From assembly GCF_016026235.1 (NCBI RefSeq), contig NZ_CP065613.1: 64,000 nt of DNA. The stretch is one strand, 5' to 3'. The notes under the pieces are model-generated. The model made no database searches and was not told where the DNA came from. It saw nothing but the letters and a program-made list of their open reading frames with translations. The DNA comes from Escherichia coli (GTDB lineage Bacteria; Pseudomonadota; Gammaproteobacteria; Enterobacterales; Enterobacteriaceae). Positions 1,485 through 7,572 of this stretch are shown here, in pieces. Position 1 is the stretch's first letter; the number at the start of each line of letters is the position of its first letter. Position numbers and translations under genes: made by a program.

Positions 1485-2375
1485 TTAATACTCGAGAATG
1501 CCGTGCGCGACGGGCAAATAGCGCAGAGAGAAATAGAGAGTGTCTTTACCGCAAGAGGAACGTTTCGCTAACAGCGAGGCAATTTCTGCGTCCGGTTTCG
1601 GTTTCGCTGTAAAGGTTTTGCCTTTGCCGGCGACAAACAGTTCATAAACAATGCCGCTTGCTGGGGCGGAACTCTGGCAATCGGCGCTGGCCTGTAGATA
1701 ACGTTCACGCTGTTCAGCGGTAAGTTTATCCACGCCGCTGCCATCCTGTACCCAGACATTAACGCCGGTTGCTTTAACGTGTTCCAGCAGTTGGCGATAG
1801 CCATCTGGCGACATGTTTCCGGCGAAAAAACTACTGATATAAACCGGTTTTGCTGAAACATCGCTAATCAGCCGCTGCTCGTTGTTTAACCATGTTAGCA
1901 AAGGCTGACGGGCGGCTTCGCTGCGCCAGTTCAGGTCGTCAATTTCCGCGCTGATGTACCAGCCATCCGGCGTTATGCCAGGCGCGGCGCTCCATAATCT
2001 GGCTTGCTGGAGATCGGCAGCCAGCAGGCGATTAAGATAGCTTTCCAGCGCTGCAGACGACTGTTTCTGGTGCATAAAAAATTCCGGATCGGCGTTCAGC
2101 CCGACAATCAGCTTCAGACCAGCCTGTTGCGCAGCTGCGGCCCGCTTAAACAATAACGTGCGCTGTTCTGGCTGGGTAAATGCATCGCCGTAACGGGTCC
2201 ATTGCAAAACCAGGGTATCGAAGCCTTGCAAACGTAACTGACTCATCAGCCCCTGCCACTGGGTATCGGTAACCTGACTATCTCGGTTTTGTGGTTGCCA
2301 GATAATACCTTTCATCGCAAAGGAAAAAGGGCTGACCAAAAGCAGTGTCAGCAATACGAAAATGAACTTACGCAT
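1485..2375 (-). CDS. ybcH: Periplasmic protein YbcH, third gene of the nfrB-nfrA-ybcH operon
   Basis: 296-aa ORF with an N-terminal signal peptide (MRKFIFVLLTLLLVSPFSFA); its ATG at 2373-2375 directly abuts the nfrA stop at 2376-2378. Confidence 0.85.
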   Translation of the reverse strand: MRKFIFVLLTLLLVSPFSFAMKGIIWQPQNRDSQVTDTQWQGLMSQLRLQGFDTLVLQWTRYGDAFTQPEQRTLLFKRAAAAQQAGLKLIVGLNADPEFFMHQKQSSAALESYLNRLLAADLQQARLWSAAPGITPDGWYISAEIDDLNWRSEAARQPLLTWLNNEQRLISDVSAKPVYISSFFAGNMSPDGYRQLLEHVKATGVNVWVQDGSGVDKLTAEQRERYLQASADCQSSAPASGIVYELFVAGKGKTFTAKPKPDAEIASLLAKRSSCGKDTLYFSLRYLPVAHGILEY

Positions 2376-5348: not shown

Positions 5349-7572
5349 TTTCGGACTCCAGTTGCGTAACCTGTTCTGTGCTTAAACCTGCTTTGAGTAA
5401 TAGTGATTGCATCGAAACTTGTAATTCGCGTTGAATTGTCAGGACGCGATCCAACGTTTCCTGGCTGATAACGCCTTCGGTGACCAAAAACTTGCCGAGC
5501 GGCAGAGAACTGCGTTCATGGCGCAATAACAACACGTTAATTGCTGAACGATTAATATGACCGAGCGTGGTCAGTATTTCGGCGAACAGGAACTGATGCG
5601 GCACATATTGCCGCCAGATTTCACCGGCCTGCTGTTCCGTGAGCCACTGATGCTGAACCGCATTGTACAACATTGCCCGCGGATCGTGACCGCGTCGGCG
5701 TGCATACCAGTGACGTAACCCCGTGACAATTTGTCCCAGCAGAACAATGACGTAACGCACTTTGCGTCCGACTTTACGCGTCAGGGCCGCCAGCGAAACT
5801 GGGTCAATACCATCTTCACTGCCGACAATTAACTCATCATTTTCCAGACGCAGCGGCAGTACCGCATAATGCAGCGCCACGGAGGCCGGCATTTCGGCAA
5901 TCAGCGAGGAAGGGATCTGCCAGGCATCGATGGATTCCCACGCCACGCCGTTTTGCTCTGCCAGCGCCTGTGCCAGTTGCTCGGCGCTAATCAGCCCCTG
6001 CATCAGCATTGAACCGCCCAGGCGTAGACCTTCGACGCGATTACGCAGTGCTGTATCGAGTTGTTCTTCAGTGATGACCTGATTTTCCAGCAGAATTTGA
6101 CCTAACGGGCGCAACGAGCGGGTATCGCCAGTGACGCTGGGGAAGTCATGCGTTGTTTTATCCCACGCCACGCGACGTGGATCGCCGTGTTGAAGTACCT
6201 GTTTTAACGCGCGCCAGTTGGCCATGAAGTTAATCAGGTTGCCCCAGAAAAGACGCAGGACGGAAAGCAGCCCCTGCGTCAGGCCGTAGTAGCCAGTAAC
6301 GAAAATCACCCGCTGCACGATGCGGTTAACCATCAAACCAAAGTTTAGCCACAGCAGGGTCATTAACCATGCGCTGCCGCTGAAAATAGAAAGGAAATGC
6401 CAGGCATCGGGCCACAAACTTTCATACGCCAGCAACAGCAAAAGCTGGATCATCACCAGCATCGCGAGGAAGCTGACAAAGTTACTGATTGCCCCTTTGC
6501 GGTCGCGCCAGAGAAAGTAGTTCAGCGTCAGGCTGGAGGTCCATTTATGGGTTTTAAAGCCCTGGAAAACAATGCCGATGATCCAGCGGGATTTTTGTCG
6601 AACCGCAGTCGAAAAGGTATCGGGGAAATATTCGCGCACGCAGATCATGTTTGACGTCCGTGCGTGCTGTAAAAATTTACGCTGCTCGCGTTCTTTGGCT
6701 TCGTCCACCACCGGAAAACGGACAAAAATTTCCGTCATACCTTTTTCTTTCAGGCGGAAGCCAATGTCGTAATCTTCAGTAAGACTCTGCACGTCGAAAG
6801 CAATACCGTCACCGTCAGCTAACAGTGCGGTCACGGCGCGGCGGCTGAAACAGGTGCCGACGCCTGCGCTGGGCACTTGTCCGGCGAGGGCTTCACGCAC
6901 CGGAACATCTTTGCCATGCAGCTCTGAAAACTCATCAATGTAAGTCATGCTAGTGAAGTGCGTCCATTCGCGTTCAAACGGATACACCGGGATCTGAATC
7001 AGATCTTTACGCTCGACCAGATAGTTGAACAGACGCAATTCCATCGGTGAAATCACATCTTCGGCGTCATGCAGAATAAAACCAGCAAAAGCGAAATTGG
7101 CGCTACGCTCAAACTGGGTGATGGCGTCCAGCACGTTGTTCAGACAGTCGGCTTTGCTGGTGGGGCCAGGACGCGCGCAGACTACCTTATGCACATTCGG
7201 GAAGCGAGCGCACACTTCGTCAACATCACGCTGAGTGTCCGGGTCGTTGGGGTAGGTGCCAACAAAGATATGATAGTTTTCGTAGTCGAGCGTGGTCGCC
7301 GCCAGCTCGGCCATATTGCCGATGACGCCCGTTTCATTCCACGCCGGAACCATAATCGCTAACGGTTTTTCATCTGGTTTATACAGTTCGCGGTAACTCA
7401 TTCGCGGGTAGCGGCGATAAACACTCAACTTGCGTTTAATGCGGCGTACCCAGTAGACGACATCAATAAAAAAATCGTCCAGCCCGCTGATGAACATGAT
7501 GACCGCTAACGTTATCGCGATTACTTTTAAGCCATAGAGCCAGGTAGCAAAAACATCAAGAAGCCAGTCCAC
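5335..7572 (-). CDS. nfrB: Inner-membrane glycosyltransferase NfrB (phage N4 adsorption; reported c-di-GMP-controlled)
   Basis: 745-aa ORF with N-terminal transmembrane segments and a family-2 glycosyltransferase-like region; its 3' end overlaps the nfrA start by 14 nt. Confidence 0.9.
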   Translation of the reverse strand: MDWLLDVFATWLYGLKVIAITLAVIMFISGLDDFFIDVVYWVRRIKRKLSVYRRYPRMSYRELYKPDEKPLAIMVPAWNETGVIGNMAELAATTLDYENYHIFVGTYPNDPDTQRDVDEVCARFPNVHKVVCARPGPTSKADCLNNVLDAITQFERSANFAFAGFILHDAEDVISPMELRLFNYLVERKDLIQIPVYPFEREWTHFTSMTYIDEFSELHGKDVPVREALAGQVPSAGVGTCFSRRAVTALLADGDGIAFDVQSLTEDYDIGFRLKEKGMTEIFVRFPVVDEAKEREQRKFLQHARTSNMICVREYFPDTFSTAVRQKSRWIIGIVFQGFKTHKWTSSLTLNYFLWRDRKGAISNFVSFLAMLVMIQLLLLLAYESLWPDAWHFLSIFSGSAWLMTLLWLNFGLMVNRIVQRVIFVTGYYGLTQGLLSVLRLFWGNLINFMANWRALKQVLQHGDPRRVAWDKTTHDFPSVTGDTRSLRPLGQILLENQVITEEQLDTALRNRVEGLRLGGSMLMQGLISAEQLAQALAEQNGVAWESIDAWQIPSSLIAEMPASVALHYAVLPLRLENDELIVGSEDGIDPVSLAALTRKVGRKVRYVIVLLGQIVTGLRHWYARRRGHDPRAMLYNAVQHQWLTEQQAGEIWRQYVPHQFLFAEILTTLGHINRSAINVLLLRHERSSLPLGKFLVTEGVISQETLDRVLTIQRELQVSMQSLLLKAGLSTEQVTQLESENEGE

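Follow-up and report, generated by a model that had tools for sequence, protein, structure and literature searches.

The nfrB-nfrA-ybcH operon of an Escherichia coli chromosome and a hydrolase-like fold predicted for YbcH

A stretch of 64,000 nt from Escherichia coli (contig NZ_CP065613.1 of assembly GCF_016026235.1; the whole stretch is called the window below) was analysed. Its positions 1485-7572 are very probably the intact nfrB-nfrA-ybcH operon, which specifies a synthase-dependent exopolysaccharide system, and no finding speaks against this identification of the operon. The operon was published in 2021 (Junkermeier & Hengge, 2021, PMC8669469, where the nfrB/nfrA overlap of 14 nt is noted; Sellner et al., 2021, PMC8669472, where the product was named NGR and a polymer based on N-acetylmannosamine, ManNAc, was proposed) and is known, common and ordinary here. 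The new point of this analysis is a hydrolase-like view of YbcH. The three genes (from the listing of open reading frames, ORFs) and their junctions are as follows.

5335-7572, minus strand: nfrB (745 amino acids, GTG start), predicted inner-membrane family-2 glycosyltransferase (GT2) activated by cyclic di-GMP (c-di-GMP).
2376-5348, minus strand: nfrA (990 amino acids), outer-membrane export protein with a tetratricopeptide-repeat (TPR) region plus barrel, and receptor of phage N4.
1485-2375, minus strand: ybcH (296 amino acids), periplasmic DUF4434 protein, predicted glycoside-hydrolase-like (beta/alpha)8 barrel.
5335-5348, minus strand: nfrB/nfrA overlap ATGAAGGAGAATAA, 14 nt, the same overlap as in K-12.
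2373-2378, minus strand: nfrA/ybcH TAA-ATG junction, ggTAAATGcgt, without gap and in the same frame.

An earlier sequence-only reading had described the three genes as intact, with a 14 nt overlap and a TAA-ATG junction, and was borne out in each respect. The reading frames are open, with no internal stop in nfrB, nfrA or ybcH. Gene lengths, gene order, overlap and TAA-ATG junction are identical to those of K-12 MG1655 (b0569/b0568/b0567), and the flanks (cusS upstream, envY downstream) are also shared. The nfrB/nfrA junction reads gaaaATGAAGGAGAATAAcc; the ATG of nfrA lies at 5348 and the TAA of nfrB ends at 5335, which gives the overlap of 14 nt, and the stop codon of nfrA (2378-2376) is directly adjacent to and in frame with the ATG of ybcH (2375-2373). 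GGAG is found 7 nt 5' of the ATG of nfrA and 11 nt 5' of that of ybcH, and AAGG 7 nt before the GTG start of nfrB. Nucleotide identity to K-12 is 99.2% for nfrB, 98.7% for nfrA and 98.5% for ybcH (18, 38 and 13 differences); the proteins differ at 3, 8 and 3 residues, respectively, making 14 amino-acid substitutions in total, one of which, NfrB R612L, is private. Purifying selection is indicated because the amino-acid changes are few against many nucleotide changes. This pattern, together with scores above the NCBIfam equivalog cut-offs for all three proteins (NfrB, NF008411, 1330 bits against a cut-off of 1170, amino acids 7-728; NfrA, NF007302, 1889 bits against 1223, amino acids 1-990; YbcH, NF007404, 521 bits), identifies nfrB, nfrA and ybcH as real genes and not chance ORFs. 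Antisense ORFs within the three genes are without support.

Since the nfrA stop codon is in frame with the ybcH start, loss of this one codon would give an NfrA-YbcH fusion; among E. coli-like YbcH clusters there are database entries in which YbcH sequence is fused to AraC-type (envY-like) domains (P0096) or to long N-terminal extensions (P0121-P0123).

Matches to the region were obtained in 5,406 of 5,426 complete E. coli genomes, in 5,047 of them (~93%) over at least 80% of its length in one piece, the best identity being 99.3% (O145:H28 lineage), so that the strain analysed is not one of these genomes. With this distribution the region is counted as core E. coli DNA.

For YbcH, 448 family members were collected at E <=0.001, of which 121 were aligned at full length (alignment A2, 24-70% identity); residue numbers and conservation counts are taken from A2.

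2316-2375, minus strand: YbcH N-terminal hydrophobic segment (amino acids 1-20, MRKFIFVLLTLLLVSPFSFA followed by MK), signal peptide or signal anchor from a hydropathy scan.
1944-1946, minus strand: YbcH Glu144, end of strand 4 (amino acids 138-145), motif GWY[IL]xxEIDD, present in 121/121 members, proposed acid/base.
1641-1643, minus strand: YbcH Glu245, end of strand 7 (amino acids 239-245), present in 119/121 members, proposed nucleophile.

YbcH belongs to DUF4434 (Pfam, 6e-69). Its AlphaFold2 model (predicted local distance difference test, pLDDT, of 96.1) consists of eight strand-helix units and thus forms a (beta/alpha)8 barrel; the nearest solved folds are glycoside hydrolases (GHs) and the structural neighbours are enzymes. 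The profile of A2 finds PDB entry 4h41 at 1.6e-7, with GWYIsgEI of that entry aligned on the E144 motif; 4h41 is BT_0435 of Bacteroides thetaiotaomicron ('putative alpha-L-fucosidase'), an uncharacterised protein with 15% identity to YbcH on which no paper was found in the literature searched. Searches of PDB sequences with YbcH, NfrB and NfrA gave no solved homologue of a full protein, and chance matches only for YbcH. Sixteen positions are at least 95% conserved (Q27, Q58, W59, G92, L93, G138, Y140, E144, D147, S181, Q210, G212, G214, E245, F247 and F282), and in the model all of them are placed at the C-terminal ends of strands 1-8, i.e. on the catalytic face of a TIM barrel. The predicted protein combines two features of clan GH-A (the 4/7 superfamily), a (beta/alpha)8 barrel and glutamates at the ends of strands 4 and 7. 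At the N-terminus, Ser at -3 and Ala at -1 would fit a signal peptidase I site; YbcH is said to be without a cleavage site in PMC8669469.

The following features were assigned in NfrB.

6427-7365, minus strand: NfrB GT2 catalytic domain (amino acids 70-382; Pfam PF13632, 2e-40, and PF13641, 3.5e-35).
5689-6114, minus strand: NfrB MshEN c-di-GMP-binding domain (amino acids 487-628), with tandem motifs at approximately amino acids 487-540.
5737-5739, minus strand: NfrB codon 612, CTG (Leu) against CGG (Arg) in K-12 and in the close strain TB06052, a private substitution.

The GT2 and MshEN regions that the earlier reading had expected in NfrB were both found by Pfam. The DxD, TED and QxxRW signatures are present as D169-A-E-D172, T265-E266-D267 and Q326-K-S-R329-W330, and their residues are invariant or conserved in 75/76 among 76 NfrB homologues. 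MshEN was matched by Pfam PF05157 (3.4e-13, amino acids 542-628) and by the NCBIfam c-di-GMP motif NF053729 (8e-20, amino acids 489-540, three matched stretches), and the PDB sequence matches of NfrB are the MshEN domains of PilF, PilB and MshE. In K-12, amino acids 414-745 bind c-di-GMP through MshEN with a dissociation constant (Kd) of ~1 µM, N4 infection requires the GT2 active site and DgcJ, and the exchanges D169A, D267A and W330A abolish N4 plating (PMC8669469). All six residues mutated in K-12 are present here (D169, D267 and W330 in GT2; L490, G491 and L537 in MshEN), and NfrB is predicted to be a c-di-GMP-binding, c-di-GMP-activated synthase. It differs from the K-12 construct used for the Kd by R612L, N731S and A736T. 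A 40-mer spanning codon 612 had no match in the 5,426 complete E. coli genomes.

The following features were assigned in NfrA.

5268-5348, minus strand: NfrA signal peptide (amino acids 1-27), with a putative cut between ...STSALA and DN, assigned by eye with the -3/-1 rule.
3225-5189, minus strand: NfrA periplasmic TPR region (approximately amino acids 54-708; Pfam TPR_19, TPR_14, TPR_8 and TPR_15 at amino acids 60-124 and 517-704).
2379-3128, minus strand: NfrA C-terminal outer-membrane beta-barrel (approximately amino acids 741-990), 12 strands predicted, ending in ...GVHW.

A classical signal sequence of NfrA is stated in PMC8669469, PDB matches to TPR proteins cover amino acids 598-712, and the Pfam domain NfrA_C (PF13283) covers amino acids 809-977 (2.7e-67). 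The AlphaFold2 model of amino acids 680-990 shows three helices up to about amino acid 738 followed by 12 strands (amino acids 741-989), which gives a predicted 12-stranded barrel, compared with 16 strands in PgaA and BcsC. In the fold comparison BcsC (10.6), PelB (10.0) and PgaA (9.4) rank lower, and the modelled barrel is nearer to the KdgM/NanC and autotransporter barrels. Resemblance of NfrA to PgaA and BcsC had been anticipated from the sequence; this stands for the architecture, since NfrA shares with both a periplasmic TPR region followed by a C-terminal outer-membrane barrel, as also found in PelB-type porins, but the model does not contain a 16-stranded barrel homologous to that of PgaA or BcsC, and homology of the barrels is not supported by it. 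The 12-stranded barrels (the KdgM/NanC oligosaccharide porins and autotransporter beta-domains) in turn have no sequence relationship to NfrA and are without an N-terminal TPR domain, and none is known to export a synthase-made polymer.

In order to follow the cluster across species, NfrB was scanned in one genome per species, which gave 80 loci from Enterobacterales, Burkholderiales, Neisseriales, Xanthomonadales, Vibrionales and Alteromonadales and from one metagenome-assembled genome of Acidobacteria. Homologues of nfrB, nfrA and ybcH stand in this order on one strand at 64/80 loci, and where the downstream DNA was long enough (68 loci), at least 65 loci continue with a DUF4434 gene. A synthase, an outer-membrane exporter and a putative periplasmic processing protein are thus encoded together, as in synthase-dependent exopolysaccharide secretion systems. 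The nfrB/nfrA junction is a 4 nt overlap in 41/64 loci and falls within -14 to +17 nt in 61/64; the 14 nt overlap is confined among the 64 loci to Escherichia and Citrobacter amalonaticus. At the nfrA/ybcH junction an overlap of 1 nt (29 loci), 4 nt (18) or 7 nt (3), no gap (5) and a Vibrionaceae-type overlap of 76-85 nt were found. In these counts the start codon nearest to the upstream stop was taken, which favours tight junctions, although the proteins so obtained have lengths typical of the family. Tight coupling is on these counts an old, conserved property of the system, and its conservation over several orders of Proteobacteria is consistent with translational coupling.

Two metagenomic YbcH homologues (26-27% identity) lie in the same cluster, one of them beside a WecB-like Epimerase_2 gene. 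Five loci of Comamonadaceae/Burkholderiales (L053, L066, L068, L069 and L071) carry an extra gene for a DUF2334 protein of 544-602 amino acids between nfrA and a divergent DUF4434 gene. The Comamonadaceae-type DUF4434 is barely detectable by Pfam; all 16 positions are conserved, with three conservative substitutions at G92/L93, and both glutamates are kept. DUF2334 may be deacetylase-like; it gave no PDB or NCBIfam match and nothing relevant in the literature searched, and the idea serves as a lead only. By analogy with PgaB, DUF2334 and DUF4434 may form a deacetylase-hydrolase pair in Comamonadaceae-type clusters.

Individual loci depart from the common arrangement. Nonsense codons interrupt nfrB at codon 551 in E. 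coli SCPM-O-B-8794 (L006, the GTDB representative of E. coli) and at codon 123 in Hafnia alvei GB001 (L014), and nfrA is shortened to 304 amino acids in Cedecea neteri (L042). In Photobacterium sp. GB-56 (L078), tblastn matches for NfrB, NfrA and YbcH are spread over positions 3-13013, which suggests two tandem nfr clusters.

Two features border the operon.

7573-7721, minus strand: cusS-nfrB intergenic region (149 nt), which holds the unmapped nfrB promoter and is identical to K-12 except for three bases beside the cusS stop.
1447-1475, minus strand: hairpin of 13 bp located 10 nt after the ybcH stop and followed by CUCUUUCGCUCUC (-20.8 kcal/mol, z = -3.0 against shuffles).

Consensus scans of the 149 nt gap gave no sigma-70-like site, no sigma-28 site above background and no terminator-like site. 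Read-through into nfrB from the copper-responsive cusRS genes is possible. The hairpin is likely to be a weak terminator of the operon; its U-tract is poor, and it was not called by a simple terminator scan.

Upstream of the operon cusS and cusR lie on the same strand, and downstream is envY (541-1302, minus strand), which directly adjoins a tRNA-Arg gene (anticodon tct, argU; 419-495, plus strand). In K-12 the DLP12 prophage and ompT lie between argU and envY; here both are missing, and in a collinear E. coli genome fimZ is found on the far side of argU. Elsewhere in the window, an IS4-like element, ISEc60 (~22390-23711; DDE transposase), is inserted between two direct copies of hokE/sok (window ~22016-24212) of ~390 nt each with 95-96% mutual identity, with a match to Rfam sok in each (22084-22238 and 23890-24045). 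When a match to 80% or more of the query was required, this arrangement was recovered from 1/5,426 complete genomes. Rfam also matched an rnk leader (58172-58280, minus strand, 125 bits) and the small RNA ES036 (24990-25031, minus strand, 40.5 bits, barely over the gathering score).

Several points count against the reading of the locus as a c-di-GMP-activated exopolysaccharide operon with a hydrolase. Expression of nfrBA-ybcH is FliA-dependent and post-exponential (PMC8669469), and a FliA class 3 site (TAAAGTTT-N11-GCCGATAA) was not found upstream of nfrB, the best match (11/16, inside the end of cusS) being background; sigma-28 matches were likewise not enriched in 79 homologous upstream regions relative to 2,000 random segments, so that FliA may act indirectly or through a degenerate site. 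The c-di-GMP module of this strain might be affected by R612L, and the genes for DgcJ and WecB lie outside the window. The 12-strand count of the NfrA barrel comes from a single AlphaFold2 model (29 sequences, pLDDT 80.8). YbcH lacks the Asn found before the acid/base Glu in the NEP motif of clan GH-A; residue 143 is Ala, and the family has no majority residue there (consensus GWYLPxEIDD). YbcH is for this reason called GH-like and is not filed in clan GH-A. Its Foldseek matches are weak (TM ~0.5), and Pfam GH5 was matched marginally by 4/121 family members.

In the alternative that survives best, YbcH would bridge NfrB and NfrA as a periplasmic scaffold or chaperone without catalysis, and its barrel would be a polysaccharide-binding module that hydrolyses nothing. 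YbcH was described as a putative periplasmic scaffold that N4 does not need for plaque formation and whose effect on motility is partial (PMC8669469), and later papers give the same picture together with a moderate effect of ybcH on N4 fitness, the scaffold being suggested again in PMC10211494. The missing Asn agrees with this, and a conserved pocket could serve binding alone. We nevertheless regard a mere scaffold as rather unlikely, since the Glu of strand 4 is invariant, that of strand 7 is 98% conserved and 14 further residues conserved to at least 95% lie on the catalytic face, which is the pattern of an active TIM-barrel enzyme, and since the structural neighbours of YbcH are enzymes. 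In the case of PgaB, the C-terminal domain was reportedly also regarded at first as a binding module, before its hydrolase activity was shown. The partial phenotypes of ybcH loss fit a protein that trims or clears polymer. Judged on the model, YbcH is probably the periplasmic polymer hydrolase of the Nfr system and not a scaffold, and its analogues in this role would be BcsZ, the C-terminal domain of PgaB, PelA, PslG and AlgL.

In a second alternative the operon, although intact by sequence, would work poorly or be silent in this strain, for instance through weakened c-di-GMP activation by R612L or through defects of dgcJ or wecB elsewhere. R612L is absent from the complete E. coli genomes and falls inside the c-di-GMP-binding construct (amino acids 414-745), position 612 is basic (Lys or Arg) in 58/76 homologues, and natural inactivation of the Nfr system does occur; Shigella CFS100 is without an intact Nfr system (PMC11654681). 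Position 612 is, however, outside the two N-terminal MshEN motifs and is occupied by Leu, Ile, Asn or Ser in 12/76 homologues (Leu in 2/76), the differences from K-12 are mostly synonymous, and with the nearest complete genome only 99.3% identical a few private substitutions are to be expected. An effect of R612L is possible but not expected from these sequences, and an impaired operon is considered improbable. The pre-2021 view that NfrA and NfrB are protein receptors for phage N4 only and make no polymer, which agrees with the historical genetics summarised in PMC8669469 and with the fact that NfrA is still regarded as a second, protein receptor of N4, has almost no probability left and is already refuted by the 2021 mutant data, in that GT2 active-site mutants block infection at unchanged NfrB levels (PMC8669469), infection needs WecB but not the rest of the enterobacterial common antigen pathway (PMC8669469, PMC8669472) and the Nfr system impedes motility (PMC8669469). 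The conservation of the catalytic motifs in the 76 NfrB homologues also speaks against it.

What the earlier reading had given as the published picture, a c-di-GMP-controlled exopolysaccharide secretion system doubling as the phage N4 receptor, agrees with PMC8669469 and PMC8669472. Its statement that polymer, physiological function and YbcH's role are poorly defined still holds for the literature searched, to mid-2026, in which no structure of the NGR polymer or of a subunit and no function of DUF4434 were found; the published case for a secreted polymer is genetic. The likely substrate of NfrB is UDP-ManNAc from WecB (PMC8669469). Following what others have shown in K-12, NfrB would act as a processive GT2 synthase of the inner membrane, would bind at its C-terminal MshEN domain the c-di-GMP that DgcJ provides locally, and would use WecB-made UDP-ManNAc to form NGR, which serves as the first N4 receptor and can hinder flagellar rotation. 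Translational coupling would keep NfrB, NfrA and YbcH in proportion. NfrA would take the chain along its TPR region in the periplasm and then out through the predicted 12-strand C-terminal barrel in the outer membrane, and YbcH would use Glu144 (strand 4) and Glu245 (strand 7) to shorten or remove ManNAc polymer in the periplasm. Comparable sets of proteins are known from the Pga system (PgaCD synthase, PgaB deacetylase/GH153 hydrolase and PgaA TPR porin) and from the Bcs cellulose system (BcsA-PilZ, BcsB, BcsZ of GH8 and BcsC), which has in common with Nfr a processive, QxxRW-containing GT2 that c-di-GMP releases, a porin built of a TPR region and a barrel, and an operon-encoded periplasmic hydrolase, the latter being predicted in the case of YbcH.

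A broader proposal is offered tentatively, as one that may well prove wrong. YbcH/DUF4434 may be the founder of an undescribed GH family that cleaves the ManNAc-based NGR and so be the processing enzyme that has been missing from the Nfr system; in some Burkholderiales it would make up a split PgaB analogue together with DUF2334, which may be a deacetylase, and NfrA would stand for a separate class of 12-stranded exopolysaccharide porins. For the strain itself, if dgcJ and wecB are also intact, it should make NGR and be sensitive to N4-like and other NGR-dependent phages. The hydrolase prediction provides a concrete and cheap test of one open point on the Nfr system. If YbcH hydrolyses NGR, it would be a reagent with which to digest and size a polymer that has resisted characterisation and to help solve its structure, and if the proposal is true a function would be given to a DUF that is widespread in Proteobacteria.

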